IMG/VR virus record: IMGVR_UViG_3300044259_000094
Span: 1-64,000 of that record
Source of the DNA: a virus
DNA length: 64,000 nt
Reading direction: 5' to 3' (one strand)
Shown here in pieces: positions 1-43,565 of the stretch. Position 1 is the first letter of the stretch; every line of letters starts with the position of its first letter. The notes beneath the pieces were generated by a model. It saw nothing but the letters and a program-made list of their open reading frames with translations, had not been told where the DNA came from and searched no databases. The translations under genes were made by a program, and so were the position numbers.

Positions 1-564
1 TCATGCGAACTCTCCAAGTTGTCTTTCTTTACGGTGTTCTTCGTCCAGCTCTTCCAGATAGTCGAGCCACAGTGCGAAGTATTTGGTGAGCTGCCGGCTA
101 CGGGCGTGCTTACCTTTGTGGTACTGGTTGAAATCACGCTCGTTCTGGATCTTGTCCGCGAACAGCATGTGAACCAGATCCTGGCTCAAGAAGCCCACAT
201 GAAAGCGCAGGTCTTCGAGTGTGAAGTGATCGGTACCGGGACGACACAGATAGGCATTGGCAGCATTGCGATAGCTGCGCGCCAGATACAGAGCGTCGAG
301 GTTGATAGCCTCATCTTTGATCAGGAGCTTCCAGTTGGGCTTGAAGATAGCCTCATCCTGGATGATTGGGTGCAAGCAGTAGGCGTCGATCGCCAACTCA
401 CTTGCACCCATGATGCGGAGCATATCGATGCCTTCATCGATATGGTTCATGAGCAGGACACCCGAGCGCTTAGCGCGGTCAGCACCATAGAACTGCTGAA
501 TGGCTTCGTACTCGTGGGTGAGGCGCTTCATCGGAAGCACGTTCTTGTTGGCTTGCTTTTTCAC
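1..564 (-). CDS. HD-domain (RelA/SpoT hydrolase, Mesh1-like) protein with degenerate HD motif; ends in LGEFA tag
   Basis: RSG.LLMNHIDE...G....AYCLHPIIQD...ADKIQN parallels the Mesh1/SpoT pattern (H..V...AA.LHD..ED...ADKL.N); GTG start overlaps upstream TGA. Confidence 0.55.
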   Translation of the reverse strand: MKKQANKNVLPMKRLTHEYEAIQQFYGADRAKRSGVLLMNHIDEGIDMLRIMGASELAIDAYCLHPIIQDEAIFKPNWKLLIKDEAINLDALYLARSYRNAANAYLCRPGTDHFTLEDLRFHVGFLSQDLVHMLFADKIQNERDFNQYHKGKHARSRQLTKYFALWLDYLEELDEEHRKERQLGEFA

Positions 565-761
565 TTAGCAGCCTCGATTGCAGCCTGACGATTCTTGCCG
601 GCTTCGATCAGCTCGGCGCACAGAGCGAGGTAGCGCTCGTTCTTGGAGACGTCGCCGACCATTTCGATAAGCGCCAGCATTTCGTCCACAATGTGTTTGC
701 ATTGCAAGCAGAACTCGTAATGCTCTTTGGCTTGCTGCTGGGAAGCTTGCTGTTTGCTCAT
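561..761 (-). CDS. hypothetical protein (66 aa)
   Basis: ORF with AGGA SD, just downstream of the promoter motif at 816-850. Confidence 0.7.
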   Translation of the reverse strand: MSKQQASQQQAKEHYEFCLQCKHIVDEMLALIEMVGDVSKNERYLALCAELIEAGKNRQAAIEAAK

Positions 762-815
762 ATCAGACGTCCTAGTTATTGCAGCGTGTCATTGCTGCGA
801 TTCATCAGAGCGTTG

Positions 816-850
816 ATTCTACGAGCTTTTAGAGAGGGTGTGATTGGCTG
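816..850 (-). promoter_or_regulatory. phage promoter motif (13-nt spacer variant)
   Basis: CAGCCA ATCA CACCCT N13 TAGAAT. Confidence 0.65.
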
Positions 851-870
851 CCAAATGACAGCCAATACAC

Positions 871-1299
871 TCAGATGGACTCTTGCCGATGGGCGCAGAG
901 CTTGACCACACGTTGGCACAGATCAGCATCGAACCAGCTGATGTGACAGCGCCAACGCTCGATGTCGAGTTTGTAAGCGAGCCACTTGTAGGCTTCACCA
1001 CGAGACATCTGCTTTGACTTCCAGATAGGATCGAACGCAGCATGTGCGGCTTTACGAGCAGTTTTGGTCTTCTCGTCAGCCAATGTACCTAACGGATGAG
1101 TGGTGCCGGCATGTACACCGACAGAAGCACCACAAGCCTTATTGGTACACAGGTAGATATAGGGCCAATCGCTGAAAGTCCGGCCGTTGTAAATCTCGGC
1201 GTGAGTCGTGTATTTGACCTCACTGCCGCAGAACCGACACTTTGTAGGAGCCTGCATGATGCTGCGTGGGTCTATCGACTTCTCGACGGACTTGACCAT
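871..1299 (-). CDS. DUF3268-family zinc-finger protein
   Basis: CRFCG...YLC..CGASVGVH.GT..PLGTLAD...AHAAFDPIWK...AYKWLA...CHI.WFD signature. Confidence 0.8.
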   Translation of the reverse strand: MVKSVEKSIDPRSIMQAPTKCRFCGSEVKYTTHAEIYNGRTFSDWPYIYLCTNKACGASVGVHAGTTHPLGTLADEKTKTARKAAHAAFDPIWKSKQMSRGEAYKWLAYKLDIERWRCHISWFDADLCQRVVKLCAHRQESI

Positions 1300-1786: not shown

Positions 1787-1793
1787 GTGAACC

Positions 1794-1907: not shown

Positions 1908-2620
1908 GCGTCGAGGCTCTCTTGTACCTGACTGCGGTCTTCAACAAACGGCTCAACGTTCCGCTTGTGCATGTACTCCTGACCTTCTTCGAGTGGCCAT
2001 TCGACTTCGTGACCACAAGCGCCGTTGGAGCACAGCTTCTTGTCCTCGCTGCGCAGCGGGATCATTTCAGAACCACACTTGATGCAGTTCTTGGTGCTAC
2101 GGAAGCGGTTGAGGAACTTCTCGGCTTCTTTGAAAGCCTGGCCGTCGTCAGCTTTCAGCATGTCGCCGATACGATCAAGAGCCGCTTCGAGGTCTTGACG
2201 AACCATCACATGGCATTCGCTGGCACGAACACGGGCGTCAACGTGTTCTTCGATGGTGAGGGACAGCGCATCGAATTCTTCGGTTTTGCGGGTCAGAGCG
2301 TCACGCAGACCGTCATTGCGGCTGATCTGATAGCCAAGATTTTCACGACCCTCTTGGACTTGCTTGAGCAGGTCATTGATAACGGTCTTGTCGATGTTAG
2401 CCTGATCGCGCAGCTCGATTTCACGGTCAACGGCACGATGAACGTCTTTGACCGCCGCACACATCCAGGGACTATCGTCGGACAGACGTTGCTCGCCGGC
2501 AGACATCCGAGTGTTGCACTGCGCAGCCACGCTGATAGCAACCAGAGCCATCTCTTTCGCTTCCAGCTCAGCGTTGAAGCCGAACAGGTCGCCAATCTTA
2601 CGCTTGATGAAACGCTTCAT
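1904..2620 (-). CDS. coiled-coil protein with C-terminal zinc ribbon
   Basis: Start moved to MKRFIK (ATGA overlap at 2617-2620); CIKC...CSNGAC near C-terminus. Confidence 0.7.
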   Translation of the reverse strand: MKRFIKRKIGDLFGFNAELEAKEMALVAISVAAQCNTRMSAGEQRLSDDSPWMCAAVKDVHRAVDREIELRDQANIDKTVINDLLKQVQEGRENLGYQISRNDGLRDALTRKTEEFDALSLTIEEHVDARVRASECHVMVRQDLEAALDRIGDMLKADDGQAFKEAEKFLNRFRSTKNCIKCGSEMIPLRSEDKKLCSNGACGHEVEWPLEEGQEYMHKRNVEPFVEDRSQVQESLDA

Positions 2621-2808
2621 ACCCATGCTCCCATTGTCTGACGATTTTGAACCTGGAGTTCGACCAGCATGGCCTCTTCCAGTTCTTGTTTTTCCGCAAG
2701 GGCTTCCTGCGGTGTATAGCCCAGTTGTTCGACCCGACCCCAAAGCAGAGCACAAAGCTCTGCCCTGGCGATGTCGGTCAGCCTTTCTTCAAACCTTGTC
2801 CCGACCAT
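2617..2808 (-). CDS. hypothetical protein ending in MGAWV tag
   Basis: GAGGAG SD; translationally coupled to the next gene. Confidence 0.65.
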   Translation of the reverse strand: MVGTRFEERLTDIARAELCALLWGRVEQLGYTPQEALAEKQELEEAMLVELQVQNRQTMGAWV

Positions 2809-4665: not shown

Positions 4666-5151
4666 TTATGCCCAACTGCCATATGCAGAGGGCTTGGGGA
4701 TTTTTGCAGCGGCTTCTTTACGTTCTCGTTCTAGCTTGTCTCGCCGAGCACTCTCAATGGCGATTTCGAATACGTTCCAGGCGTCTTCGATATTCTTACC
4801 GCGCTCGCGAAGTCTGGTAACGAGGTCGATAGTTTCAAGCGGTTCATACAAGCCGGCGTCAATGATGTCGTCGATCAAGGCTTGCCACTTCTTGTTCTCG
4901 GACTCGACCATTGCTGCCTGTTTTGCAGCCTCAGCAGCGGCCATTTCAGCAACCATCTTTGCAATGGAGGCTTTGTGATCAGCCTCCATTTCAGCCGCAG
5001 CCTGCTTGTATATGTATTCGCCAGGCGGTCTTTTCTTGATGGCGTTGAATGTCGCTTCCGGGCCACTCTCGTAGTCATAGGCGAGACCCTTCTCAACCTT
5101 TTTGAACTCCTTGAGCATGTCAGCCAGGCTGGTTGGCTTGAGAGGTTTCAT
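4666..5151 (-). CDS. hypothetical protein ending in YGSWA tag
   Basis: ATGA overlap start MKPLKP. Confidence 0.75.
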   Translation of the reverse strand: MKPLKPTSLADMLKEFKKVEKGLAYDYESGPEATFNAIKKRPPGEYIYKQAAAEMEADHKASIAKMVAEMAAAEAAKQAAMVESENKKWQALIDDIIDAGLYEPLETIDLVTRLRERGKNIEDAWNVFEIAIESARRDKLERERKEAAAKIPKPSAYGSWA

Positions 5152-5441
5152 GCCCACTGGCCCATAGAAGTGGATCGCTGTTCGTCAGCCAGAAGTTCTT
5201 CAACCTCTTGTTCCACACGAATGCGATCAGCCTCTTTGATTTGCAGGCGAATAGACTCGATGTCACCAGAGGCTTTTATTGTCATCTGCTTAATGTGGAA
5301 ATACAGCCGGTCTTTGATGTCGAGGTTAGCCCGAGTAATTTCGTCAGCTTCATCGGCTTCGAAGTCTTCTTCTGGCTCGCTGCGCTTCTTCAACTCAGCC
5401 TCGAAGAAGTCTTTGAATTTCCACCCATGTACAGGTTTCAT
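5148..5441 (-). CDS. hypothetical protein ending in MGQWA tag
   Basis: ATGA overlaps at both ends. Confidence 0.75.
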   Translation of the reverse strand: MKPVHGWKFKDFFEAELKKRSEPEEDFEADEADEITRANLDIKDRLYFHIKQMTIKASGDIESIRLQIKEADRIRVEQEVEELLADEQRSTSMGQWA

Positions 5442-5743
5442 GCCCAGTCACCGTAAGTTTCAGGTTTTGGTTTGTTCTTCTCAGCTTCGAGGTGAACCTT
5501 GTGATCAGCCTCAAGCTCATAGAGGGTCTTGTCGCTCACCGGGATGTGTTCGGCTGCACACTGTGCGCAGATATCACCCTCAGCAAGGCTGAACAACCGA
5601 CGCTTGCTGCTGGATACCTGGCAGTAGACGCACTTCTTGGTCATGGTATCCAAGACCGACTCAACCTTCTTGCGCCTCTCATCCATCATCTTCTGAAAGC
5701 CTTGCTGGGCGCGTAACGTCGTCCCTTTCCCCTTGTACGCCAT
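5438..5743 (-). CDS. zinc-finger (CxxC...CxxC) protein ending in YGDWA tag
   Basis: Start moved to MAYKGKG with AGGAG SD; CVYC/CAQC. Confidence 0.7.
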   Translation of the reverse strand: MAYKGKGTTLRAQQGFQKMMDERRKKVESVLDTMTKKCVYCQVSSSKRRLFSLAEGDICAQCAAEHIPVSDKTLYELEADHKVHLEAEKNKPKPETYGDWA

Positions 5744-5775
5744 GACTACGGCACTCCTGTTGTTTGCTTGCTTCG

Positions 5776-5809
5776 ATTTTACGCAAAGAGCAAAGGCATC
5801 ACATGGCGC
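5776..5809 (-). promoter_or_regulatory. phage promoter motif
   Basis: GCGCCA TGTG ATGCCT N12 TAAAAT. Confidence 0.75.
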
Positions 5810-5855
5810 CCAGCGTTTGCTGTGACGCTCTGTGATGCGTTTTAAGCGACGTTCG

Positions 5856-6416
5856 CTAGTGAGACTTAGATGCGCTAGCAAGTCGTGCTAACGTCGCAGC
5901 AGCGAGCTGTGAGCGCTTGTCCCGAGCAGCTTCCTCTGAGCGTTCGAAGTAGCTTGCAGAGTCATCGAGCCAGCTGAGGTCAAGATGATAACTGCGGCGA
6001 CTGCGGATAGCGTGGATCTGGAACTGTCGATCGACGTACTCGATAGCCAAATCGAGCGGCCATTGGTTTACAGCAGCCAGTTGGTTGATAGCTCGCATGA
6101 ACTCAGCCTTACCCTGAGTGATAGCGAAGCCAATGTGCTTGACCTTGTGACAATCCGGGCACAGAGCGATCAACCCGGTGAGCCTCTGAATCAAGGCATG
6201 GTCTTCGTAATCCCAGATTTCGTGACACTCGACTGGATGCTTACGCCCACGACCACCGCAGACTTCACAGCGGTGACCTGCTTTTTGGTAGCAAGCCGCG
6301 CGAAGACTGTCCCACTGCACTTTGGTCAGCCGGCTGCGCAGGTTGTCTTCCCACTGCGTGGAAGGGACCAACTCAATGGTCAGCTTGGGTTCCGGGTACG
6401 GATGGAATTGGCTCAT
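5856..6416 (-). CDS. HNH-fold nuclease-like protein
   Basis: CEVCG...ECHEIW...LIALCPDCHKVKH. Confidence 0.75.
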   Translation of the reverse strand: MSQFHPYPEPKLTIELVPSTQWEDNLRSRLTKVQWDSLRAACYQKAGHRCEVCGGRGRKHPVECHEIWDYEDHALIQRLTGLIALCPDCHKVKHIGFAITQGKAEFMRAINQLAAVNQWPLDLAIEYVDRQFQIHAIRSRRSYHLDLSWLDDSASYFERSEEAARDKRSQLAAATLARLASASKSH

Positions 6417-6520: not shown

Positions 6521-6627
6521 TGGGTCGCCTTCGAAGCTGCGATCAAAAGAAGGTGCATGAAATAGCAGACGGCAAAAGTGACTGCGATATCCACAACCAG
6601 AATCAGAATTTTCTTACGAAGGCTCAT
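6517..6627 (-). CDS. small membrane peptide (36 aa, MSLRKKILILVVDIAV...), not in ORF track
   Basis: ATGA overlaps at both ends; hydrophobic. Confidence 0.6.
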   Translation of the reverse strand: MSLRKKILILVVDIAVTFAVCYFMHLLLIAASKATQ

Positions 6628-6845
6628 GCCCAGGGATTCTCCGGTTTATGGCTCTCCGGGACGAACCCTTCTGGCAGAGCCTTCATGACAACGCGACCAC
6701 CAAAGTAGTGCCAGTCGTGCAAACGACCAGTTTCTTTGGTGAGTTTCTTGCGGAGTTCTTCCGCTTCTGCTTTTGGCATGTCATAGACGCCAATCAGCTC
6801 ACCGTGTTTGTAGACATCAAGGTCACACGCCATATCAGTGCTCAT
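6624..6845 (-). CDS. hypothetical protein ending ENPWA
   Basis: Start MSTDMA with GGAGG SD. Confidence 0.7.
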   Translation of the reverse strand: MSTDMACDLDVYKHGELIGVYDMPKAEAEELRKKLTKETGRLHDWHYFGGRVVMKALPEGFVPESHKPENPWA

Positions 6846-6869
6846 AGTGCCTCCAAAAATCAGAGCCAT

Positions 6870-6891
6870 AAAAAAGCCCTCCGAAGAGGGC
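6870..6891 (-). terminator. intrinsic terminator
   Basis: GCCCTC-TTCG-GAGGGC followed by T6. Confidence 0.85.
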
Positions 6892-6910
6892 AAAGGCCAG
6901 GGTAAATCTG

Positions 6911-7887: not shown

Positions 7888-8487
7888 CTAGCCCTCTACT
7901 GTGAGAAGGGGATCAGTGATGATCAGTTTCTTGCCATCGGTCATGTAGTTGGCCGGGTTGTACAGATCATGCACCAGATCCAGTGTTGAGGCGTTCATGA
8001 AGTTGGCGATCCACATCAGCGCTTTGGAAATTGAGGCGCTAAATAGATTGGATGCAGCCAACTCCTGCAATGCACTGGCATAACGCTCCTGCGCTTGCAT
8101 AACGCCAATGTGACGGTCGCTCTCGACAATACGGTGACGAATAGCAGCCATCACAGACTCGCGCTCGTAATAGAGAGTCGAGTGAATATCCGGGTCAATC
8201 GTTTGCAGCCTTTGAAGCTCCACAAGGTGAACTCCTTGTGGGTGTTCTGGTGAGCCCATATGACCCAGATACTCAATGAACTCAACCAGCCCGTCGCAGC
8301 CTTGAATACGGCCTAACAGGAGCAAGTTGACAGTGGTTTCATCCACAGTCAGCTTGTAAACGGTATTTTGGCAGGAGCCTTCGAAGACTATCGAGAACTC
8401 GCCCCGCCCAATCTGAGCCTTACCGCGTAACTCAGGGAAACGCTCCAGATATCCCGGAGCATCTTCCAGTTCAAACATATGGCTCAA
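7888..8487 (-). CDS. protein-kinase-like (PKL fold) protein
   Basis: IGRGEFSIVF glycine loop, VYKL lysine, HDLYNPANYM catalytic loop, IITDP; start may be TTG 8487 or ATG 8478. Confidence 0.65.
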   Translation of the reverse strand: MSHMFELEDAPGYLERFPELRGKAQIGRGEFSIVFEGSCQNTVYKLTVDETTVNLLLLGRIQGCDGLVEFIEYLGHMGSPEHPQGVHLVELQRLQTIDPDIHSTLYYERESVMAAIRHRIVESDRHIGVMQAQERYASALQELAASNLFSASISKALMWIANFMNASTLDLVHDLYNPANYMTDGKKLIITDPLLTVEG

Positions 8488-8975
8488 GACCAACCGCCAA
8501 TATCAACGCCCTTTTCAGCAGCTTTGGCGATCTGTTCTTCGTCCGCGATCAGCGTGCTACCAGGAACAACAGGAGCGAGCTGATTGCCGGCTTCAACGAA
8601 GAAGGTGTTACCGTCTTCATCCACGTCGATGGAGCTTTCGGTGTAGCGCAGGAGCATGTCCTCGAAAGCTTCTTCGGCAGCAGACTTGGTGCGGAAGGTC
8701 TGTGTGGCAGCCGGGTCGAGCACCCAGCCTTTGTCCTGAACAGTTTCTTCTTCCCACTCGGACTTCTTCACGATGACACGGTTGTACACCTGGATACCGT
8801 GAGAGTGACGGTACTCAGACGGCAGATCCTTGCGATAACGGCCGATCCAGTGGAATCGAACCCAGATCTTGTCGTTGCGGTACTCACGGAGAGTCCACTC
8901 CGGAGAATCTTTCTTGGCTTCCCAACCCTTAGCGTTCAGGCCGGTGCCGTCGATGTTTTGGTAGATGTAGGACAT
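8484..8975 (-). CDS. hypothetical protein ending in IGGWS tag
   Basis: Coupled ORF (TAATG start). Confidence 0.75.
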   Translation of the reverse strand: MSYIYQNIDGTGLNAKGWEAKKDSPEWTLREYRNDKIWVRFHWIGRYRKDLPSEYRHSHGIQVYNRVIVKKSEWEEETVQDKGWVLDPAATQTFRTKSAAEEAFEDMLLRYTESSIDVDEDGNTFFVEAGNQLAPVVPGSTLIADEEQIAKAAEKGVDIGGWS

Positions 8976-10866: not shown

Positions 10867-11074
10867 TGGAACTCTCCTTGCGGTTGTAGTGACGACGAAT
10901 GGTGTAGCCACGAGCAAAGCTGGCTACGGTGCAGAGCGCTACTGACACGCCGGCTGCCAGAGCAGGTTCTGTGATGTACTTCATGCAGGCGAACACGATG
11001 ACGTAGCTGATGGCAGAACCAATCACCATGTTCGTTGCGGTTTCTTTCATCGAAGCCAGTTTGGACTGGCTCAT
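10850..11074 (-). CDS. small two-TM phage membrane protein (DUF7220-like)
   Basis: MSQSK..S..E...N..IG...S..RGY.IRR..N pattern. Confidence 0.7.
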   Translation of the reverse strand: MSQSKLASMKETATNMVIGSAISYVIVFACMKYITEPALAAGVSVALCTVASFARGYTIRRHYNRKESSNGSNR

Positions 11075-11484
11075 GCAAACGTACCCGCACCACGAAGCTC
11101 GTATTCAGCAATGCGAGCCTCAGCCTCATTTCGCAGCGCAGCTTTGACGCCGGCCGCTACCTTTTCCAGGGTTTCACGATCCATTGCCAGACCTTTACCT
11201 GCTGCACGCAGACTGGCATCGAACGAACCACCAAGCTTGTCAGCGCCGTTCAGGATCGCTTTCTCGATCAAGGTGTGCAGAAAGTCAGGCTTGTTGGTTA
11301 CTTCAAGCACAGCCTTCTCTACAGCCACAGTGATCATCGGTGCCACAGTGATCATCGAGTTGTTGATAGCCTGAGCAACGGCCGAAGTTATAGCTGGATT
11401 GTTTGCTGCGCAGGCTTTGATGGCATCTTCCACAGCTTTAGTGGCAGCGGCGTTGAGAAACGCCTGCTCGACAATGACACTCAT
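11071..11484 (-). CDS. Ala-rich helical protein ending in AGTFA tag
   Basis: Coupled ORF. Confidence 0.7.
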   Translation of the reverse strand: MSVIVEQAFLNAAATKAVEDAIKACAANNPAITSAVAQAINNSMITVAPMITVAVEKAVLEVTNKPDFLHTLIEKAILNGADKLGGSFDASLRAAGKGLAMDRETLEKVAAGVKAALRNEAEARIAEYELRGAGTFA

Positions 11485-22428: not shown

Positions 22429-22955
22429 GCTACTTCCTTCCAGTGCTTGCCTGTCGCCGCGTTGATGATCGTTCTCCGATCGACACCGTACTTGGCAGCA
22501 AGCTTGTTGATGACCTTGCGATCCCAACCTTTGGCGTAGGCTGCACGAATGATGCGCACCTTAGCCGGGTTGAGCTTCGCACTTCTGATGCGAACACCGA
22601 ACACTATACGCCCGTGCAGTCGCTTGTCAGCCTCGTTCTCTTTCTTGGTTGCCCATTTCAGATTGAGCAACCAGTTGTTCACGCTGTTGCCGTCGATGTG
22701 ACAGCCAACGTGATCAGAGGAAGGGCGAGGGCCGGCGAACGCTTCGAGCACCAGAAGGTGAACACGAACCTTACGGCCGACACCGTGATCGTCTTCCATG
22801 TAGACGCGCATGTAGGTGATGTTTTTGTACTTCTCGGCGTACAGCTTGATGATGTACGGCTTGCCAGTACGGTTGGAACGAATCCGGCCGTACTGTGACA
22901 CCTCATACCGAGTGTAACCCGGGATGACTTTCCATACCTCAGACACTAGGTTCAT
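22425..22955 (-). CDS. NUMOD4-HNH homing endonuclease
   Basis: EVWKVIPGY..YEVSQYGRIRS; VHLLVLEAF.G...CHIDGN..NN...NLKW.T..EN. Confidence 0.9.
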   Translation of the reverse strand: MNLVSEVWKVIPGYTRYEVSQYGRIRSNRTGKPYIIKLYAEKYKNITYMRVYMEDDHGVGRKVRVHLLVLEAFAGPRPSSDHVGCHIDGNSVNNWLLNLKWATKKENEADKRLHGRIVFGVRIRSAKLNPAKVRIIRAAYAKGWDRKVINKLAAKYGVDRRTIINAATGKHWKEVA

Positions 22956-33242: not shown

Positions 33243-36200
33243 TTAGCTGAAAATGTCAGCTACCTGCTGAAACACTTGGTCGAGCAGGGCTTGTTTGGAC
33301 CCGTCGAAGCAAATCATAGCCGGGTTGAAGCCGGATACAACCGTGCAGTCGGACTTTGGATCGAAGAAGGACTTGCCACAGTTGTCCTCCCAGCCACCCT
33401 TGATATCCGGGACGAGCTGTCTTACAGATTTGCTACCCAGAGCTACGATCACCGGTGGTTTCAGAAGGGCAATCTCCCGCTCAAGGAACTTGCCACAACC
33501 GTTCGCAGTGACGTTGGTAATCTCCTCGTCTTTCAGCTTGCGGGCTTTGATGTAGCTGGTCACATAGACTTCGGACATCTTGAGACCTGCTTTGGTCAGG
33601 GACGCCTTGATGAAGTTCGCGGTGTCACCCACCATCATCTGACCCTTCTCTTCCTCTTTGTAGGATGGGCCATCCACGACGATCATGACTTTGGGTTTCT
33701 TACCCAGGACTGGTTGAGGGTGGTTGCGACCAATGAACGGACACCCGTCACAACCCTTGTAGGTCTGGTAGTCCTCAACGATCTGAACCAGCTCAGCACT
33801 CACAGCGCCGGTGACATCGATCACCCGTTCGGCTTTGACGTTGCTAACCACAATCCCGGGTAGCAGCTCCTTCTGGTCACGCAACCGATCTGGGTGACGG
33901 CTATCAAGTTGCCCGGGTTCGATCTTGCTGAATGCACCGATCTTGTCGAGTTTCTCCTGTGCGGTCTTGTTGCACGCACGACGGTCGACCTCAAGAATCA
34001 TTTCGGCCTTGTTCTTGAAACCACGACCAAGCTTCTTGCGTGCAGCCAGAATAGCTGCGGCCGACTTCTCAGACAGACCCTTCACAGACTGGAACGGTGC
34101 ATAGAGGATCTTCTGACCCCGTGCGCTATCGAAACCAATCTCATAGCGGTCAGAGCTATGGTTGATATCAGGAGGGACGATGTAGATGTCACTGGCTTGA
34201 GCGTCTTTGGCAAGACCAGGCAGCTTCTGCTCATCCAGAATCGACAGACAGGCTGCATAGAACGCTTCTGGGTAGTACACCTTCACCCACATGGTCATGT
34301 AGCTGATCAGGGTGTACGCCACAGAGTGAGACTTGTTGAAGCCATAGCCGGCGAACTTCTCGATCTGCTCGAAGATGAAGGTCGCGGTCGCATGATCCAG
34401 CCCGGACGTAGCGATACAGCCGTCAACGAACTTGTCGCGTTGCTCAGCCATCTTCACCGGGTCTTTCTTACCCATGATCTTTCGCAGGCCGTCTGCTTCT
34501 GGGAAGGTGTAACCCGCAAGGTCACGGGAAATCTGCATGACCTGTTCCTGATAGACCATGACGGACATCGTAGGCTCAAGCGCAGCTTTCATGTTCGGGT
34601 GAAGATACTCGGGTTCCTGGAACTCCTTCTTGATGGCGACGTACATTTCCATCAGACCCGCTTGCATTGGACCCGGGCGATACAGAGCTGTTGCGGCTAC
34701 ACAGTCCTCGAATGTCAACGTACCGGTTGATCCAAGCTCCTTGAGAAGCTTCCGCATACCGCCGGATTCAAACTGGAATACGCCGTAGGTCTTAGCCTCT
34801 GCGAACGCCTGCAAAACCTTCTTGTCATCAAGAGGCAACCTGGTGAAGTCTACAGACACGCCAGAGCTTTCGTGGATGTAGTCTTTGCAGAGACGGAGAA
34901 TGTCCAAGTTGGACAGACCCAGTACGTCGAGCTTGATCAAGCCAAAGTCTTCCACGACCCGCTTGTCCCAGTTGACGATACCCACACCTTGTCTGTTGTT
35001 GACTACGCCACGATGGACGATCTTGTCGCCGGCTACAACGACACCAGCTGCGTGCTTGGCAAAGTTCTTGAACGTACCTTGCAGACCCACAGACGTTGCC
35101 CAGACTTGAGGATGGTTGAGCGCAAGCTTCTCAAGCTCCGGGACATACGCGACCGCTTTCTCAAGCGGAACAGGTACACCAGATTCTTTGGGCACCAGCT
35201 TGGAACAATCGTACTCGCTCTCATGCAGGCCATACGCTTTGCCCACCGCTTGAATCGCACCAGCGCCAGCAAGGGTGTTGTAGTTGGCGATCTGGACAAC
35301 GTGATCGTTGCCGAACTTGCTTACAAGGTGGTCAACGATATCCTGGCGTCGGCTGGACATGAAGTCCAAGTCAACGTCTGGCAAGTCGATACGTTCCGGG
35401 TTGATGAAACGTTCGAAAATCAGGTTGAAGCGGATCGGGTCAACGTCAGTGATGCCCATGAGATACGCGACAAGGCTACCGCCGACAGAACCACGACCCG
35501 GGCCTACCATGATTTCGTTTGTCTTCGACCAGTTCACGACATAGTGAACCAACTGGAAGTAGGCTTCGAACTTCATCTTCTGGAGGATGGACAGCTCGTA
35601 CTTGAGACGGTCTTGATACTTCGGCAGATCAGCAGACGCCGGCTTGTAGCCGAAGACTTCCGTACCCAGGCGATCCTTCCAGCCTTGCTTACAGATGGCT
35701 ACGATATCTGCCATTGGTGTAGCGGACATCGTAGGGAGACTGGGCTCAAGTTTCTTCCATTGGTACGGATGATCCTTGAAGTAGTCGTTGGTCTTCGCCA
35801 AAGCATCGTTGAGCCACTCAGTAACGTTGTCACCGTCGGCTCCGTCATCCACGCGATTGCAGATCCGGTCGACAGTCTTCGCTACTTGGTCGAGCCACTC
35901 AGCTTGCTCCAAGACATAGAGGTCTTCTGGAGGTTCACGCCGCCACATGCTGTCTGCTTTGTCGTGGGACAGGATCGAGTTCATCGTCGACCGGAAGCTG
36001 GACTCGCCTTTCTGATTGAGGGTCGGTCGAGTGACGATAGCTTTGATGCCCCGTTCCTCGAATGCTTTGTAGCTCTGCGCATTGTGCGCGTCGTAATACA
36101 TTGAGTTGACTGGGACGACTTCTGCGAGCACTTGTGACACGTCCAAATGATCGCACAGCATGTCTAGTAACTTATCTTTGTCTCGCAGCGTAAACGCGCT

Positions 36201-36641
36201 GTAAGCGCTTCCCAGAGTCATCGTCAGGTTGCCCCGAGACACGAACTCGATCAGCTCTTCGCGGCTGATTTGTGCGCGTGCAGGCTTGGTGCAGTAGTGG
36301 TCTTCCTGCTGTGCGAGGGTCATGAGTTCACACAGGTCACGGAAGCCTTGTTCGTTGCGGACAAACAAGGTCGTGACGAACACCGGGTTGGGCTTGCGTT
36401 TCGGCTCACCACGCTTGGCTGCTACCCAGGTGAGGTCTTCGACCACAGCCATTTGCACGCCCAGTCCGATACGCAGGGTCTTTGCCTTGCTCATGAGAAT
36501 GGGCATGGCGTCGATCGACTCAACGTCCGTTACCACTAAGCCATCATACCCAGCAAGCTCAGCCTTTTTGACTAGAGCTTCTGGGTCATAGATGCTTTCG
36601 CCAAGACTGAAATGTGTCTTGGCTCCTAGCAGGTTATTCAT
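33243..36641 (-). CDS. dnaE: DNA polymerase III alpha subunit with C-terminal uracil-DNA-glycosylase-like domain
   Basis: GPGRGS.GGSLVAY, FERFINPER.DLPDVDLDF, HAAGVV, KLDVLGL, FNKSH; C-terminal family-4 UDG-like region. Confidence 0.95.
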   Translation of the reverse strand: MNNLLGAKTHFSLGESIYDPEALVKKAELAGYDGLVVTDVESIDAMPILMSKAKTLRIGLGVQMAVVEDLTWVAAKRGEPKRKPNPVFVTTLFVRNEQGFRDLCELMTLAQQEDHYCTKPARAQISREELIEFVSRGNLTMTLGSAYSAFTLRDKDKLLDMLCDHLDVSQVLAEVVPVNSMYYDAHNAQSYKAFEERGIKAIVTRPTLNQKGESSFRSTMNSILSHDKADSMWRREPPEDLYVLEQAEWLDQVAKTVDRICNRVDDGADGDNVTEWLNDALAKTNDYFKDHPYQWKKLEPSLPTMSATPMADIVAICKQGWKDRLGTEVFGYKPASADLPKYQDRLKYELSILQKMKFEAYFQLVHYVVNWSKTNEIMVGPGRGSVGGSLVAYLMGITDVDPIRFNLIFERFINPERIDLPDVDLDFMSSRRQDIVDHLVSKFGNDHVVQIANYNTLAGAGAIQAVGKAYGLHESEYDCSKLVPKESGVPVPLEKAVAYVPELEKLALNHPQVWATSVGLQGTFKNFAKHAAGVVVAGDKIVHRGVVNNRQGVGIVNWDKRVVEDFGLIKLDVLGLSNLDILRLCKDYIHESSGVSVDFTRLPLDDKKVLQAFAEAKTYGVFQFESGGMRKLLKELGSTGTLTFEDCVAATALYRPGPMQAGLMEMYVAIKKEFQEPEYLHPNMKAALEPTMSVMVYQEQVMQISRDLAGYTFPEADGLRKIMGKKDPVKMAEQRDKFVDGCIATSGLDHATATFIFEQIEKFAGYGFNKSHSVAYTLISYMTMWVKVYYPEAFYAACLSILDEQKLPGLAKDAQASDIYIVPPDINHSSDRYEIGFDSARGQKILYAPFQSVKGLSEKSAAAILAARKKLGRGFKNKAEMILEVDRRACNKTAQEKLDKIGAFSKIEPGQLDSRHPDRLRDQKELLPGIVVSNVKAERVIDVTGAVSAELVQIVEDYQTYKGCDGCPFIGRNHPQPVLGKKPKVMIVVDGPSYKEEEKGQMMVGDTANFIKASLTKAGLKMSEVYVTSYIKARKLKDEEITNVTANGCGKFLEREIALLKPPVIVALGSKSVRQLVPDIKGGWEDNCGKSFFDPKSDCTVVSGFNPAMICFDGSKQALLDQVFQQVADIFS

Positions 36642-37138: not shown

Positions 37139-38386
37139 TTAGCTCAGGATACGCTTCGCAACACCCAGTGCTGCTTCTTTTTCTGCTTCTGGCAGACGGT
37201 TGCAGTAGGCGTACATCGCGCCTTCTACGAAGTCCGCTTTCATCATGCCGATGCGAGCGATGTTGATGGCAACACGCGGGCCGATGGTCAGCGACACGAT
37301 GTTCGGGAACGACTTGTGACGAATCTCGTCGGCGAACTGACGGATCTTCTTCGCGTCGGCCTCGTTCAGACCAGTCGCAGCAGCGATCATGGCGATTTCT
37401 TGCTTCTCTGGTGGGTAGTCCACCATCGCTACGACACCGAAGCGTTCGATGGTCGCGGCGTCCTGGGTCAGCGTTGCTTGGTACAGACCGGACTGGTCAC
37501 CAGTACCGTTCGTGTTACCAGTAGCAGCGAACGTGAACAGCGGGTGAGGCTTGATGACACGCAGGTGCGGCGGAGCGTTCTTGATGATCAGCGGCTCACC
37601 TTCGAGAATCGCCTGGTAGGCCGACAGGACAGTCGGAGACGAACGATCGATTTCGTCAGCGAGGTAGGTCCAGCCGTTCAGCATCGCAGTAGGCAGTGGG
37701 CCGAGTTCGAATTCGGTCACCGATACAGCGTTGCCGTCCGGGTTAACGTGAGGCTTGACGACCCACTGACCGACGATGTGGCTTTCTTCGGTATCGACAG
37801 TGTGCTGGAAGCGGAACAGACGACGATTCAAACCGGCGCACATTTGCTTGAAGATCGAGGACTTGCCCACACCCGAGTGGCCGAACAGGAAGATCGGGGT
37901 ACGCAGTTCCATCGCCATCATGACGGTCTTCGTCAGATCAGGGTTCAGGATGTAGTTGTCGCTCCAGGCCGGGATCATGTGACCGTAATCACCGGAAGCA
38001 GGACGAGCGTCAGCGGTGCAAGGAATGCCCTGGCCCGACTTGGTGTACGCAGACTTCGTGCTTTTCGGGAAGCGGAAGGCTTCGTGGAAGAACACTTTGG
38101 TCAGGTCAGGGTTGCCGGTCTGAGCAGGCTTGGCGCCTTCGGCCGGTGCATTCGCAGCGACTGCGGATTCTTCCGCTTCACGCTTGGCTTTCATTTCGGC
38201 CATCTTCTTCTTGGCCGTTTCGGACAGCAGCTCAGGGCTCTTGCCATCTTCGGTGGCGTAAGTGCTGATGTAGGTTTCCAGATCCATCGGCTGAGCAGAG
38301 TCCTCGCCGTGCGCGGTTTTCAGGTGGTTCGCGATGCTGTGTACTTCTTCACCGCAGATCAGGCACTTGATTTTGTCGTTGCTCAC
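37139..38386 (-). CDS. CobS/CbbQ/MoxR-type AAA+ ATPase with N-terminal C2H2 finger
   Basis: CLIC...HLKTAH; GHSGVGKSS, YLADEID, ATGNT.G.GD..G.Y......A...RF, GPR. Confidence 0.88.
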   Translation of the reverse strand: MSNDKIKCLICGEEVHSIANHLKTAHGEDSAQPMDLETYISTYATEDGKSPELLSETAKKKMAEMKAKREAEESAVAANAPAEGAKPAQTGNPDLTKVFFHEAFRFPKSTKSAYTKSGQGIPCTADARPASGDYGHMIPAWSDNYILNPDLTKTVMMAMELRTPIFLFGHSGVGKSSIFKQMCAGLNRRLFRFQHTVDTEESHIVGQWVVKPHVNPDGNAVSVTEFELGPLPTAMLNGWTYLADEIDRSSPTVLSAYQAILEGEPLIIKNAPPHLRVIKPHPLFTFAATGNTNGTGDQSGLYQATLTQDAATIERFGVVAMVDYPPEKQEIAMIAAATGLNEADAKKIRQFADEIRHKSFPNIVSLTIGPRVAINIARIGMMKADFVEGAMYAYCNRLPEAEKEAALGVAKRILS

Positions 38387-38477: not shown

Positions 38478-40544
38478 TTAGCTGGCCAGCAGCGCGTCCC
38501 GGAGTTGCTTGAGGACGATGCCCGGCAGGTCCGCAACGTTGTCCAGCTTCACGTTTTTACGGTAGAAGTGCTGAACGGAGTTGGACATGATGCCGACGCC
38601 AACAATGTTGGTGCCGTCCTTCTCGATACGCTGGACGACCTTCTTCAAGTGGGCATTCAGCTTGCGGCCATCTACACCACCCGCCGGCTGACCGTCACTG
38701 AATACAATCATCATCTTGCCTTTCTTCTTGCCCTTGTTGGCATGTCGGCACAAGGACTCGTAGGCATACTGCACCGATTCGCCGTCGATGTTCGATGCCA
38801 TCGAGGACTGGACGTGTGCATACGACGCCATACGCTTCTTGACCTCGATGGAGAACTTCTCCTGGAAGGTCTTGAACATCGGCAGCATGAGAGGCTCACA
38901 GCGGTCGAAGTGTTTGCCGGCGTTGTAAGCGTCCTGCATTTCGCGATACAGGTCTTGCGAGCGATTACTGCCGAGATAACCGGTAGTGAAGCCCATGATT
39001 TCGCAATCAACACCCAGGCGGCCGAGTACGTCTGCAAGCACCCACGCAGCGCACATTGCGGTGTGGATCTTCGAACCGCCCATCGAACCCGAACAGTCGA
39101 TCACCAACGACACTGCGATTTCGCGGGTCTTGTGTTCGATCTTATTCTTGTAGATATGATCGTCGCCGGCGGTCAGACGATACAGGTTGTTCGAGGACAG
39201 CTTGCCCTTGCGCAGACCCTGCTGGGTGAGCGACTTGTTCCGGGCTGCGAACGCACGTTCGAGTTGGCGTGCAACCGGGCCAACCATACCAGCGATGGAG
39301 TTTTCGAGGTCGTCCATCCACTTGGGACTGTAGGACGATGGGATTTTTGGCGGTTCGAGAATGTCCCACTCACGGGTGAACACCGTGTATTCCTCGTCTT
39401 CCATTTCGGTAGAGCAGAGGTCAGACACGTATTGACCGAACTCGGTGCCGATATCCTGCACCTTGTCCCAGTCAAAGTTCTTCATGTAGTTGGCGCCACC
39501 GTATTCGGACTGAGCCGATTCGGTGTCTTCGGTCGCTTTGTCGCGCTCGCTTTGCTTGGACTGACCGTCAGCACCTACAGCGGCGTCTTCTTTGCGAGGG
39601 TCTTTGTCGCCGGCTTCGTCTTCGGACTCGTCGCCTTCGTCGTCGCCGTCAGCAGCGTCGTCGGCTTCATCGTCCTCTTCCGCTTCTTCGTCACCAGGCG
39701 CACCGCCACCACCAGCTTCGTCTTCTTCCTCTTCTTCCTCTTCGCCTTCGAGGTCGCCGGCACCTTTACCCTTGTTCGCTTCGGGCTTACCGCCACCGCC
39801 CTTACCCTTGCTTTTACCGCCACCGCCACCCCCGCCACCTTTGCCTTTCTTGCTAGGGTCTTCGTCACCGTAAGGGTTGTCGCCATCACCTTCTGGCGGC
39901 TCACCCATTACGATGTTGCGAATTTCCTTCGCCATGTCGTAGCAGTCGGACGCTTTGGTCATGGACTGCATCTTCTTCTGGATAGGCTCCAGCTGTTTCT
40001 GAATGCCGGCGATCAGCGACCACTTGTCGCTCATGTAATCCTGGAAGAACTTCTGACCGCCCCAGGCACGCAGCGCAGGCACTGCGAGAACTTGGAACAG
40101 CTCTTGCTCTTCCGCGCCGTTTGCGAGCGCTTCTTTCAAGCGAGGCGTGATGAACTTGTCCACGAAGGTCTGGTGCATGTTCGCCAGGTTATGACGAGAG
40201 CCAGAGAAGTTCTTCACCATTTCCTTCTCGCAGAAGAAGGATTCGAGCGGGTTGTACAGAGAAGCCATGTTCTCGTGCGCCGCTCGCAAGTTGGACTTGC
40301 CGTCAGCGTACAGAACTTTGGAGATTTCGCTGTCAAGGAAGCCCTGTACCGCTTCGATCAGCTCTTCGCTGGCATCGTCAGGGATCATAGGCAAGTTGAC
40401 GCGAGTGGCCTTCATGGTGCGTTCGTCGTACTTGACGAAGGCTTTGACGCCGGACTGGGTTACGAGAACTTTGCCATCAGAGAGGATCTGAGCAATCTTG
40501 GTGATTGCCTCCCTCATGATGACGATGCGTTGAGTGCGATCCAT
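38478..40544 (-). CDS. CobT-like vWA-domain protein
   Basis: Gly/acidic linker; C-terminal vWA with DCSGS MIDAS, N.DGE, SDGQP, VGVGI. Confidence 0.88.
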   Translation of the reverse strand: MDRTQRIVIMREAITKIAQILSDGKVLVTQSGVKAFVKYDERTMKATRVNLPMIPDDASEELIEAVQGFLDSEISKVLYADGKSNLRAAHENMASLYNPLESFFCEKEMVKNFSGSRHNLANMHQTFVDKFITPRLKEALANGAEEQELFQVLAVPALRAWGGQKFFQDYMSDKWSLIAGIQKQLEPIQKKMQSMTKASDCYDMAKEIRNIVMGEPPEGDGDNPYGDEDPSKKGKGGGGGGGGKSKGKGGGGKPEANKGKGAGDLEGEEEEEEEDEAGGGGAPGDEEAEEDDEADDAADGDDEGDESEDEAGDKDPRKEDAAVGADGQSKQSERDKATEDTESAQSEYGGANYMKNFDWDKVQDIGTEFGQYVSDLCSTEMEDEEYTVFTREWDILEPPKIPSSYSPKWMDDLENSIAGMVGPVARQLERAFAARNKSLTQQGLRKGKLSSNNLYRLTAGDDHIYKNKIEHKTREIAVSLVIDCSGSMGGSKIHTAMCAAWVLADVLGRLGVDCEIMGFTTGYLGSNRSQDLYREMQDAYNAGKHFDRCEPLMLPMFKTFQEKFSIEVKKRMASYAHVQSSMASNIDGESVQYAYESLCRHANKGKKKGKMMIVFSDGQPAGGVDGRKLNAHLKKVVQRIEKDGTNIVGVGIMSNSVQHFYRKNVKLDNVADLPGIVLKQLRDALLAS

Positions 40545-40642: not shown

Positions 40643-42058
40643 TCACTTGATAGCGTTCTCGAATTGGCGCTCGACCTCAGCGAAGCTGTCGGCGAACTGC
40701 TTGTCGAAACGGCGCTCAACGAAGATCGGCAGGAACAGGCTGTGTTCGATCTTGCCGCGCTTGGCGTACATGATTTCGTTGGCCTTGACGGTGATGATTG
40801 CGCCGATCCAATCCCAACGGTTCTCGTTGATTTCACGGCGCTGTTCATCGGTGAAGCCGGAGCCTACGTTGACTTTCAACATGCCGCAGGACGTCTTGCA
40901 CTTGAGTGAGCCGAAGGTATCAGCGGTCTTGCCACCTTCCTTGCCCTCTTCGAAGTCATAGACTTCCAGCTCGACAGGCACTTCCTGCTTGAGCTTCACC
41001 TGATCTTTGGAAGTACCGTCCTTCCAGATCTTGCCAGGCTTCTTGGCGATCGTACCTTCAAGCTTGCGCCGACGAGCATCGTAGTAATGCTCCATCGCCT
41101 CTTCGTAGCTACGGACGACCCGGGTTTCGATGACGCTGATGGGATGATTCAAACGCTTGGCTTGAACCAAGCTGATTGCGGCGTTCAGCGTGCGCAGGCG
41201 CGTCACATAAGGCTGATCAAACTGGCCCTTCTTGACCGCTTTGTCTTTGGGGATGACATCCCACAGAACTGCGGATAGCTCGTAACCTTTCGGCAGTAGT
41301 GTGCCTTTGATCAGCTTGTTGATCAGGCCGTTGCCTACTTCGCGAGCGCAGACATTACCTTCTGAGTCGAGGACAAGCAGCTCGCCGTGAGTGTTCAGAC
41401 CGTTGGCGAACTCAGGGTGACTGGTCAGTAGAGGCTTGAAGGTCTCGTAGAACGCTTCCATAAGCCCTTCGAAGCCTTCTGTTGGGAACGGCTGACCCTG
41501 GCGACTGGTGAAGCTGACCAATGTAGGCTCAACAATGCCGTTGAAGAACATGCCATCAGCTTTGATCTGGCTGATTACACCTGTTGCCCAGGGCCAGGCT
41601 TCGAAGTCTACGTCCTTCGGCAGAGAGCAGCGCTCGTAAGGTGAAGAAGGGATGAAGTCCTTGCTGACCTTGTTGATGGAGTTCTCAGTGAAGCCGGCCT
41701 TCATATCCTTGTTCAGGACACGCCACAGCAACTCGGCCGAACGAACATCAAGTGCCGAATACTGATCGCCGATGGCGGACAGCGCTGCGTTGCCGGTGAG
41801 CTTGCGAGTGGCAAGGTCGTCAAGCATCTGCCAAGTTTCGTCTGTCCAGACACCGGTGTACATCGGATGATCCGGGCAATGCTCACCGGTGAAACGCGCT
41901 GGGCGAACACCAAAGGTAATGAACGGGCTGTAGGCGTACAGCATGGTCTTACCGAACTGGCTATCTTCCATAGCCAGGCTGAGGAACGCTTGCTTGTCGT
42001 TCTTACCAGGAGTCAGCGCGATTGAGCTGATACATTCCATGATTTGATTGGAGTTCAT
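40643..42058 (-). CDS. ATP-dependent DNA ligase
   Basis: KADG motif I, SRQG, HGELL, WD, LEG...K, KLK, VGSGFTD, SLFLP.F...RFDK. Confidence 0.92.
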   Translation of the reverse strand: MNSNQIMECISSIALTPGKNDKQAFLSLAMEDSQFGKTMLYAYSPFITFGVRPARFTGEHCPDHPMYTGVWTDETWQMLDDLATRKLTGNAALSAIGDQYSALDVRSAELLWRVLNKDMKAGFTENSINKVSKDFIPSSPYERCSLPKDVDFEAWPWATGVISQIKADGMFFNGIVEPTLVSFTSRQGQPFPTEGFEGLMEAFYETFKPLLTSHPEFANGLNTHGELLVLDSEGNVCAREVGNGLINKLIKGTLLPKGYELSAVLWDVIPKDKAVKKGQFDQPYVTRLRTLNAAISLVQAKRLNHPISVIETRVVRSYEEAMEHYYDARRRKLEGTIAKKPGKIWKDGTSKDQVKLKQEVPVELEVYDFEEGKEGGKTADTFGSLKCKTSCGMLKVNVGSGFTDEQRREINENRWDWIGAIITVKANEIMYAKRGKIEHSLFLPIFVERRFDKQFADSFAEVERQFENAIK

Positions 42059-42723
42059 TTGCCCGCCTTGAGTTTCATTGCGGCCCGACGCTTGATGAAG
42101 TCCGCAGTGGACTCACCTGGCAGTGGACGAGTGGATGATTGATCAGCTGCTGGGGTTGCAGCGACAGTAGGAGTAGGTGCCGCCTTGTTCTCTGCGTGCT
42201 CTTTCATAAGCACGTTGACTACATCGGCCATACCCTCTTCAACAAACCCGGACTTCTTGATCGGGCCAATGTTGCGAGTGGGTCGTGGAGCTTGACGCTT
42301 TGGAATAGGCTTGTCAGTGCTGTAGCCTTCACGACCGCCGATAGCCCAACCGCGTGCGTAGCTCGGGTTCGACATATCGTATTTGCCGCTGCTTACTGCG
42401 CCATCGACAGCTGCTTGCTTCTTAGCAGACTCGTACACATGACGAGGGCGCTCCTTGAAGTACAGAGCGTGACCGGCTTTACGCTCTTCCTCCCGCATAC
42501 CCTTTGCGGGGCAAGTGTTATGGCAGTAGTAGCGCTGGCAGTCGGTGAACTGATCGCGAGCCAAACGATCTTCTTCGATGGCCTTGAGCGTGTGCAGGCA
42601 TACAGCGTAGTTCACCTGCTGCTGGCGAGCGTCACAGAACTGGTAGAAGGCGTTGCGGCCGCTCATGCTTGCCTCTACGGGGAGGATAGCAATCAGCTCC
42701 GGGTCTTCTTTGACTTCGGACAT
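42055..42723 (-). CDS. hypothetical protein with Cys cluster
   Basis: Start moved to MSEVKE downstream of promoter 42756. Confidence 0.7.
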   Translation of the reverse strand: MSEVKEDPELIAILPVEASMSGRNAFYQFCDARQQQVNYAVCLHTLKAIEEDRLARDQFTDCQRYYCHNTCPAKGMREEERKAGHALYFKERPRHVYESAKKQAAVDGAVSSGKYDMSNPSYARGWAIGGREGYSTDKPIPKRQAPRPTRNIGPIKKSGFVEEGMADVVNVLMKEHAENKAAPTPTVAATPAADQSSTRPLPGESTADFIKRRAAMKLKAGK

Positions 42724-42755
42724 TGGGAGACTCTCTCGTTTGTTGTCGCGCTTGC

Positions 42756-42789
42756 ATGATACAAGCGCGCTGGAGGGCTTATACGGCGT
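42756..42789 (-). promoter_or_regulatory. phage promoter motif, -10 in hairpin loop
   Basis: ACGCCG TATA AGCCCT N12 TATCAT; CGCGCTTG/CAAGCGCG inverted repeat. Confidence 0.75.
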
Positions 42790-42791
42790 TC

Positions 42792-43565
42792 TTATGCGAA
42801 CCCACCCCAACCGCTACCGTAGACCTCTTCGCGATCAATAACGGGCACTGGGGTCTTTGGAGCGACTGGTGGTTTGCCCTTCTGAGCGCCGAACATCATG
42901 GCTGTCATGGCTGACACGATGTCCTGGCTGACACGATCCTTTGGCGCCAATTCCATTTCAGATTGAATCGATAGACCCTTACCTTCGAGGAAGGTGATGA
43001 AGTCTGCAGTTGGGAAGATGTCTTCGGCGATCGCCTTACCAATCAGAGTACCAATCTTGGATTCGGTACCCATCTGGATAAGACTGGCAGCTTGAGCTGG
43101 GCAGAACCCCATAGCCGGCAGTCTGCCGGCGTCTTCATCGGCGAGAACGTCGTAAACGAACTGGTGATTTGAGTCGATTGGAATGTATCGACCAATGTAC
43201 TGCTCGATCTTGTAGTCCTTGCCCACAGCCTTCGACTTGACTACGCCGTACCACTCCTTCTCGCTCACAATCTTGGCTTGAGCTTGACCCTTTACGCCGA
43301 GATTCTTGCCCCACCAGGTTACGGATATACCGGTAGAGCCAGACTTGTTCAAAGCGATGAACATGGACTTCCAGATCTTGCCTTCCGGGTGATGACAGGA
43401 CACGAACGACGAGCTGTAGACCGCGCCACTGGTTTCAGAAATGGCGGTGAACGAATCAGCCAGAGATTGCCGGCCGGCGTTGTCGTAAGTGGGCCAGGCT
43501 ACCCTGTGAGACACGGTTTCAAGGCTAAGATTCGTGGTAGAAAAGGGAGTGAATGGGATGGTCAT
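42792..43565 (-). CDS. protein with WGR-like segment, ending in WGGFA tag
   Basis: K.W......VTWWGK..G..GQ.........KSK..KDY resembles a WGR domain. Confidence 0.7.
   Translation of the reverse strand: MTIPFTPFSTTNLSLETVSHRVAWPTYDNAGRQSLADSFTAISETSGAVYSSSFVSCHHPEGKIWKSMFIALNKSGSTGISVTWWGKNLGVKGQAQAKIVSEKEWYGVVKSKAVGKDYKIEQYIGRYIPIDSNHQFVYDVLADEDAGRLPAMGFCPAQAASLIQMGTESKIGTLIGKAIAEDIFPTADFITFLEGKGLSIQSEMELAPKDRVSQDIVSAMTAMMFGAQKGKPPVAPKTPVPVIDREEVYGSGWGGFA

Follow-up and report, generated by a model that had tools for sequence, protein, structure and literature searches.

The stretch of DNA analysed here, subsequently called the window, comprises positions 1 to 64,000 of the IMG/VR virus record IMGVR_UViG_3300044259_000094 and makes up the initial 64 kb of a viral contig of 95.7 kb that is about 85% complete. 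Its genes all reside on the minus strand, and a set of them encodes proteins that share a short C-terminal tag with glycine at the fourth and tryptophan or phenylalanine at the second position from the end, which is the subject of this work. Among cultured phages, the closest relatives belong to the genus Nickievirus, siphophages of Pseudomonas syringae (nickie, ZY21, Nican01, phiK7B1 and hairong), with approximately 75% DNA identity to the replication module of the window, the genes of which encode DnaB, DnaG, ligase, CobT, CobS, DnaE, a T4 gp32-like SSB (a protein that binds single-stranded DNA), RecA, SbcCD, RuvC, NrdAB and ThyA. An earlier note, made from the sequence alone, had listed ten such termini, which were recovered as given upon re-reading of the minus-strand open reading frames (ORFs) and all follow the pattern hydrophobic-G-x-[WF]-[ASV]; a few of the gene starts listed along with them differ from those of the longest ORFs, which are 4666-5157, 5438-5881 and 6624-6893 for the reading frames given as 4666-5151, 5438-5743 and 6624-6845, and this leaves the termini unaffected.

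Following the window from its first position, and all on the minus strand, the carriers of the tag start with a protein of 187 amino acids (aa) ending in LGEFA (1..564; phrog_21276), the weakest copy, and a 63-aa protein ending in MGAWV (2617..2808), which is overlapped by a longer ORF, yet has a 63-aa ortholog that is an annotated gene of nickie (gp052, with the end MGGWA). A cluster of carriers follows with a 163-aa protein ending in KPSAYGSWA (4666..5157), the stop codon of which is TAA without ATGA overlap, a 97-aa protein ending in MGQWA (5148..5441), the tag of which is present in all three cultured genomes compared, and a 147-aa protein ending in KPETYGDWA (5438..5881), equally tagged in all three genomes compared. 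The 89-aa protein ending in ENPWA (6624..6893) had been considered a partial match; it is indeed a variant copy without glycine at position -4, and a conserved one, with ESPWA in the relative G004. Further on, a 163-aa protein ending in IGGWS (8484..8975) is separated from dnaQ by one gene and is tagged in five genomes, while a 137-aa protein with the end AGTFA (11071..11484) has ortholog ends MGAFA, MGNFS and AGAFA. Two adjacent genes encode proteins of 288 aa ending in IGGWA (22952..23818) and of 230 aa ending in FGGWA (23819..24511), the latter immediately after sbcC. The last carrier of the window, a 257-aa protein called fam3 that ends in YGSGWGGFA (42792..43565), is located between the primase and the Zn-finger and ligase genes. 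An eleventh copy outside of the window ends in YGVFS (contig 92676-93014, minus strand) and is Mu Gam-like by PHROGs.

Counted over the whole proteome, as the earlier note had recommended, G-x-[WF]-[ASGV]-stop terminates 10 of the 116 called genes, whereas 0.12 would be predicted by composition or by how often this pattern occurs internally (Poisson P = 2e-16); a looser pattern combined with a generous expectation gives P = 3.5e-11. As the pattern occurs internally at an ordinary frequency, the excess concerns the C-terminus specifically. The tag thus defined is found on roughly one gene in 10 of this Pseudomonas phage and of a large family of relatives of about 110 kb with other hosts, with 10-17 tagged accessory proteins per genome. 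That none of the core enzymes, lysis or tail proteins is tagged had been correctly stated, as had the absence of relationship among the carriers, which BLASTP bears out. Homology gives few hints on the carriers: the ten tagged proteins of the window match only two families of unknown function in PHROGs, nothing significant in Pfam and NCBIfam and nothing in the Atlas, the models of two carriers have no match by Foldseek, and a scan of IMG/VR with the 230-aa carrier alone gave no matches.

The sequence logo of the tag shows lysine or arginine at position -9, proline at -8, glutamate at -7, G, D, E or N at -6, F, Y, M, W or I at -5, glycine at -4, a small residue at -3, tryptophan or phenylalanine at -2 and A, S or G at -1. 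The 25 residues that precede it are enriched in glutamate (15.7% versus 7.4% elsewhere) and proline (8.9% versus 3.7%) and depleted in hydrophobic residues, whereby the charged or proline-containing linker noticed previously becomes a computed Glu/Pro-rich composition. In AlphaFold2 (AF2) models of two carriers, the 288-aa protein and fam3, confident domains (predicted local distance difference test, pLDDT, 74 and 88) are followed by tails with values below 50 at residues 256-288, the last 33 residues, and 228-257, respectively; the tag is therefore predicted to sit on a disordered Glu/Pro-rich tail.

Codon usage, analysed over 39 copies from the window phage, nickie and hairong, discriminates between the peptide and the underlying DNA as the target of selection. 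Glycine at -4 is encoded by GGC in 12, GGT in 9, GGA in 9 and GGG in 9 copies, the aromatic position alternates between Trp (25 copies) and Phe (14 copies), unrelated codons give F, Y, M, W, I, L or A at residue -5, and orthologs show synonymous differences such as GGT/GGG and TTT/TTC. Given that glycine is encoded by all four of its codons, that Trp alternates with Phe and that a Shine-Dalgarno (SD)-like core (GGAG, GAGG or AGGA within the last 15 nt) occurs in just 9 of the 39 copies, selection is on the peptide and not on the DNA. The earlier note had cautioned that ATGA coupling and glycine-encoded SD sequences might explain some terminal residues, though not the motif, and this caveat was right, since coupling accounts for the choice of GCA only. 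Of the 23 copies that end in alanine, 20 encode it by GCA, a codon that makes up 19% of alanine codons genome-wide; 16 of these 20 codons lie within GCATGA, GGA and GGG are used in excess for Gly(-4), and 20 of the 39 copies end in NNA-TGA. Codon choice is consequently adjusted to the overlap of stop and start codons and, at times, to an SD sequence. On the other hand, W/F at -2 together with G at -4 is found in 7 of the approximately 18 ATGA-coupled genes of the phage; as the last residue of the remaining ones is Q, K, I, E or V and 19 of the 39 tags occur without ATGA, coupling is not the source of the motif.

With their tails removed, the 39 carriers from the same three genomes fall into 20 BLASTP families without paralogs within a genome, and in 8 of the 20 families the tag is present in all three genomes. 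The ortholog check suggested beforehand came out in favour of the tag, which is almost always retained, with a single discordant pair, the tagged protein 1-564 and its untagged nickie ortholog gp044. Equally, metagenomic homologs of the 288-aa protein with 34-47% identity all end in IG[GE]WA. This retention takes place in fast-evolving proteins, as most carriers have 27-60% identity to nickie or hairong versus 70-88% for most core enzymes. PKPEG[YF]GxF[SAG] terminates the six nearest cluster representatives of the Gam-like family; because the remoter homologs stop after a short acidic tail without the tip, the tag of this family is a lineage-specific add-on.

A restriction of the tag to Nickievirus was considered and rejected as the artefact of a pattern that demanded a residue after the aromatic one, with a relaxed pattern finding the tag beyond the genus. 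The unified motif reads P-x-x-[FYW]-G-x-[WF] with one optional small residue thereafter at the free C-terminus. The form given in the earlier note holds in the clade of the window phage, of which the trailing Ala/Ser is characteristic, but not as the general form, since the motif ends at the aromatic residue in most lineages. In Rhizobium phage RHEph10 (NC_034248), seven proteins, two of them encoded between primase and ligase, end in [NH]-P-x-[FY]-G-[RM]-F-stop; a separate C-terminal bias of this phage is that 44 of its 145 called proteins end in Ala and 22 of 145 in Ala-Ala, with alanine at 10.7% overall, all four alanine codons used and core enzymes included. Xanthomonas phage JGB6 (OQ436456) has at least 10 proteins with the end P-[DE]-x-Y-G-x-W-stop, a lower bound as the large genes of this record are mostly split into several coding sequences (dnaE, nrdA and the tape measure gene among them), which suggests many frameshift errors. 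The IMG/VR fragment G008 encodes GWGLF and RWGMF between the primase and Zn-finger genes and RWGLFA after sbcC, and the divergent complete genome G006 holds approximately 14 copies, mostly with W/F-S/G ends. Among 80 IMG/VR loci picked by CobS similarity (36-89% identity), many from contigs of about 110 kb, 57 hold at least one co-oriented tagged ORF within 10 kb; tagged ORFs amount to 78 of 4448 in the co-oriented direction versus 7 of 5682 on the opposite strand, and their usual form is ERG[DE]xWGSW-stop.

No enrichment of the tag was found in the control phages T4, PAK_P1 and phiPsa374, with one ORF each, and in phiKZ, PB1 and YuA, which were assessed by DNA pattern, nor in the cobS-bearing cyanophages Syn9 and S-PM2. 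A general trait of Pseudomonas phages was accordingly rejected upon the results for phiKZ, PB1, PAK_P1, phiPsa374 and YuA, and a link to cobS in general upon those for the two cyanophages. The sole tag-like terminus of the latter belongs to an orthologous protein of 64-67 aa that ends in TGK[FL]FFGIF (Syn9 163373-163576; S-PM2 124362-124556). As judged by these comparisons, the tag tracks one large family of DnaE/gp32/CobST siphophages with at least three host genera. Common to every tag-bearing lineage are the replication, recombination and CobST core and structural genes, while unrelated phages of the same hosts have no tag.

The tag is a real C-terminal short linear motif under protein-level selection throughout the family. 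The earlier proposal of a terminal signal that defines a set of client proteins is thereby sustained by peptide selection, the disordered tail, portability and retention in orthologs, whereas the readers that it put forward stay putative. With a probability of roughly 0.55, we consider the tag to be a docking motif for one receptor in the conserved replication, recombination and CobST core of the family. Presented on its disordered Glu/Pro-rich linker, the motif [KR/N]-P-x-x-[FYW]-G-x-[WF], with an additional small residue in the Nickie clade, would mark, in each genome, 10-17 accessory proteins that evolve fast, a good number of which are encoded in the replication and recombination modules, for a common receptor. 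A pocket may be plugged by the terminal carboxylate and by two aromatic or hydrophobic side chains at a distance of three residues, with the invariant glycine permitting a tight turn. Since all tag-bearing lineages share the core and unrelated phages of the same hosts are untagged, the receptor is most likely part of the core or a universal host hub that the core makes use of; as a single protein within the core it would be found among DnaB, DnaG, ligase, CobT, CobS, DnaE, the gp32-like SSB, RecA and SbcCD.

The best single candidate for the reader is the CobT von Willebrand factor A (vWA) domain with CobS. The CobT-like protein of 688 aa (38478..40544, minus strand) has a C-terminal vWA domain, with CobT_C and VWA matches in Pfam, and an intact MIDAS (the adhesion site that depends on a metal ion; DCSGS at residue 483), preceded by an N-terminal zincin-like region without HExxH and by a Gly-run and poly-acidic linker of about 120 residues (about residues 225-345). 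Its partner, a CobS-like MoxR-type AAA+ ATPase of 415 aa (37139..38386, minus strand), matches Pfam AAA_5, with AAA_3 and bpMoxR below cut-offs. A vWA protein with intact MIDAS is thus encoded beside a MoxR-class AAA+ gene, the arrangement expected of MoxR-vWA systems such as CobS-CobT, NorQ-NorD, CbbQ-CbbO and RavA-ViaA, and it was seen in every tag-bearing lineage examined. The pair belongs to the same module as the ancestral carriers. The cobST genes occur in every tag-bearing lineage, which were, though, either selected through similarity of their CobS or have the entire core in common; T4, which lacks cobS, is untagged, and so are PAK_P1 and phiPsa374, the cobS status of which lies outside the comparison. 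The C-terminus of CobS, [KR]-[IVH]-[LF]-[SAG], is kept in 7 of the 8 genomes compared and resembles the last residues of the tag. Judged by their sequence, the C-termini of CobS and DnaE may serve these core enzymes as docking tails of their own.

To our knowledge, the CobS-CobT pair of phages has no known viral role. That it forms a viral protein-handling motor, in which the vWA/MIDAS domain of CobT captures the tagged clients and the AAA+ motor CobS takes part in their remodelling, is a tentative proposition that we hold to be possible rather than probable; if true, it would represent a virus-encoded system of client tagging and remodelling that acts on replication, recombination and host-takeover proteins. 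MoxR-vWA pairs have been proposed to capture an extended peptide at the MIDAS (PMC7159879), and the tag, in which a free carboxylate neighbours an aromatic residue and the peptide is extended and disordered, is this kind of ligand. In the structure of Brucella CobSTN, helices of the C-terminal domain of CobN adjoin the MIDAS of CobT (bioRxiv 10.64898/2026.07.21.739949). Unlike the tag, the binding of which is here only proposed, the known client CobN is a folded protein that docks by its surface; a CobN gene was not noticed in the phage, although no dedicated search for it was run. Furthermore, 10-17 unrelated clients under one C-terminal motif are not described for any MoxR-vWA pair in the literature searched.

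Several observations weigh against docking to a single core receptor, and against CobST in particular. The 80 loci were fetched by CobS similarity and are therefore unable to tell CobS apart from the other parts of the core. As the cobS-bearing cyanophages Syn9 and S-PM2 are untagged and cobST is widespread in phages (PMC8651126), CobST can do without this tag. The clients may also have more than one receptor, and the two modelled carriers gave no clear function.

Among the alternatives, the first to be considered is a non-canonical binding motif for the sliding clamp or for a different hub of the replisome (the gp32-like SSB, DnaB or RecA, for example), which we regard as unlikely. In the clamp version, a phage with DnaE and DnaQ would use the beta clamp of its host and recruit accessory proteins by their C-terminal tails, as short hydrophobic or aromatic and often C-terminal motifs of unrelated DNA-metabolism proteins (the clamp-binding motif (CBM) Q-L-x-L-F, the PIP box and the tails of T4 gp43, gp33 and gp55) converge on one hub. 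The spacing Phi-x-x-aromatic is shared, carriers cluster after the primase, after SbcCD and near DnaQ, and one is Gam-like. The clamp motif of Escherichia coli Pol II is QLGLF, which the G008 tails GWGLF, RWGMF and RWGLFA, with WG[LM]F and a fit to phi-x-[LM]-F, resemble. The untagged DnaE polymerase (33243..36641, minus strand) ends in QVADIFS, similar to the motif QADMF of E. coli alpha; its C-terminus is VADIF[SA], or more widely V-A-[DE]-I-F-[SAT], in Nickie-like genomes and divergent in G008 and RHEph10. A dependence on the host clamp would be in line with the lack of a DnaN, gp45 or PCNA family in the genome, as the clamp families PF02916, PF00705, PF00712 and PF02768 had no member in the 95.7-kb contig of about 85% completeness, where a very divergent clamp would escape detection.

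What speaks against clamp binding is the sequence of the tag itself. The consensus of the beta-clamp motif is Q-phi-x-[L/M]-[F/L], and replacement of Phe by Trp weakens binding (PMC11139829). In the tag, the place of the glutamine, before -5, is taken by G, D, E or N, and by Asn in part of the copies from RHEph10 and JGB6. The Nickie clade has G, A, S, T, K, E or H at position 4 and RHEph10 has R there, a set of small or polar residues or Arg, whereas L/M occurs in G008 only; Trp is preferred at position 5 (25 of 39 copies), and Gly is invariant. A canonical beta-clamp motif was hence rejected, as the tag departs from the published consensus (PMC11139829). Equally, the tag has neither the glutamine nor the second aromatic residue of PIP box and T4-type tails (Q-x-x-[ILM]-x-x-[FY]-[FY]), and 10-17 clamp binders per genome would be unusual. 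Of the known systems, the SSB tip DDDIPF and the acidic-aromatic tails of T7 gp2.5 and gp4 share with the tag a disordered, often acidic linker and an aromatic residue with free carboxylate that docks in a pocket. However, the polarity is reversed, with many tagged clients and one receptor expected, and although some linkers are acidic, the tip [KR]P-x-x-Phi-G-x-Ar is unrelated to DDDIPF. The bacterial SSB tip occurs elsewhere, at the end (DFDSFDDDIPF) of a 607-aa phage protein of the IMG/VR contig G001 (33208-35031, plus strand), which by its sequence may mimic SSB partner docking.

Next in order is a degron for the timed destruction of early or accessory proteins by a host AAA+ protease or by a phage peptidase of the HslV/proteasome-beta type, which we likewise hold to be improbable. 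Non-polar C-terminal tails are classic bacterial degrons, and mycobacterial proteasome activators end in GQYL. The carriers are accessory proteins and many are small, and the contig encodes an HslV/proteasome-beta-like N-terminal nucleophile (Ntn)-Thr peptidase (contig 90890-91393, minus strand) with intact catalytic residues (invariant MTT, D14, K30, GSG and D143), the profile of which matches proteasome beta5 of the PDB (E = 6e-9) and the gene of which is kept, adjoining a thioredoxin-like gene, in all five Nickie-like complete genomes. Like the HbYX/GQYL and HslU tails, which dock in a pocket, the tag is an aromatic C-terminal tail, and its Nickie-clade register with G(-4) and aromatic(-2) equals GQYL. 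This register is, though, restricted to the Nickie clade, since in RHEph10, JGB6, G008 and the majority of IMG/VR relatives the aromatic residue comes last, and the carriers are not ATPase rings. Moreover, RHEph10 and JGB6 are tagged without an HslV-like gene, while G001 has such a gene yet no tags, which excludes the peptidase as the general reader. The pattern is stricter than that of known ssrA-type degrons, and in place of the end -L-A-A-COOH of the ClpX degron (C-motif 1), Trp/Phe is followed by A, S, G, V or nothing, with Ala-Ala at the end of none of the copies.

Far less probable is a capsid-targeting signal that would load clients into proheads for co-injection, as performed by encapsulin cargo peptides or the tail of the HK97 protease. 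Encapsulin cargo peptides such as VGSLR have a similar Phi-G-x-Phi shape, and co-injection of a DNA-end-protection protein would be sensible. The suggestion of capsid loading in the earlier note, however, found no support, as no structural or head-assembly protein is tagged and the carriers are encoded in early and replication operons and not in the late module; virion proteomics for these phages was not found in the literature searched. Least probable of all, and already contradicted by the codon and terminus data given above and by sister lineages that retain the peptide without the trailing residue, is a functionless peptide that arose as a by-product of translational coupling through glycine-encoded SD sequences and ATGA stop-start overlaps, since Trp/Phe and the hydrophobic residue at -5 are kept through differing codons.

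Among the proposed clients of the core receptor, fam3 is the most widely conserved, always situated between the primase and the Cys4 protein with the ligase. In an alignment of 15 sequences with identities down to 19%, the only invariant columns are M1, G93, G172 and the W, G and F of the tag. The high-confidence model of fam3 has no Foldseek match; in a wide VIA search the best rows were weak WGR matches (2ra8, Z 4.4; PARP1 WGR, Z 3.6-3.9), the family contains a conserved TWWGK, and one of its 15 members matches Pfam WGR with E = 0.11. Tentatively, fam3 might therefore be modelled as a WGR-like domain that binds nicks or breaks. The untagged neighbour that always adjoins fam3, a Cys4 Zn-finger-like protein called as 222 aa (42055..42810, minus strand), served as the marker to find relatives. 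Its family of about 220 aa with 67 homologs shows an invariant internal Y-A-R-G-W-A-I-G-G, a disordered Pro/Lys-rich stretch and a basic C-terminal helix ADFIKRRAA; a hidden clamp of PCNA size was considered for this gene and rejected, as the product is a Cys4 protein with disordered regions. In the tail-fibre region at the far end of the window, a giant ORF (52616-64000, minus strand, continuing to contig 64654) encodes about 3,800-4,000 aa and has 23-25% identity to parts of nickie and hairong tail proteins and 63% to G004.

In the literature searched, no description of this tag was found, and the motif, its client set and the phage family appear undescribed therein, while the kind of thing is known from SSB tips, clamp-binding motifs, HbYX tails and degrons. 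Direct tests of the system are feasible, since nickie and its relatives are available in culture. About one gene in ten carries the same address label in a widespread phage family that spans biocontrol candidates against P. syringae, Rhizobium and Xanthomonas phages and at least dozens of metagenomic contigs. Identification of its reader would provide pull-downs and engineering with a portable handle of 9 residues, would assign dozens of proteins of unknown function to a common pathway at once and could reveal a viral role of CobS/CobT or a new route of replisome recruitment.

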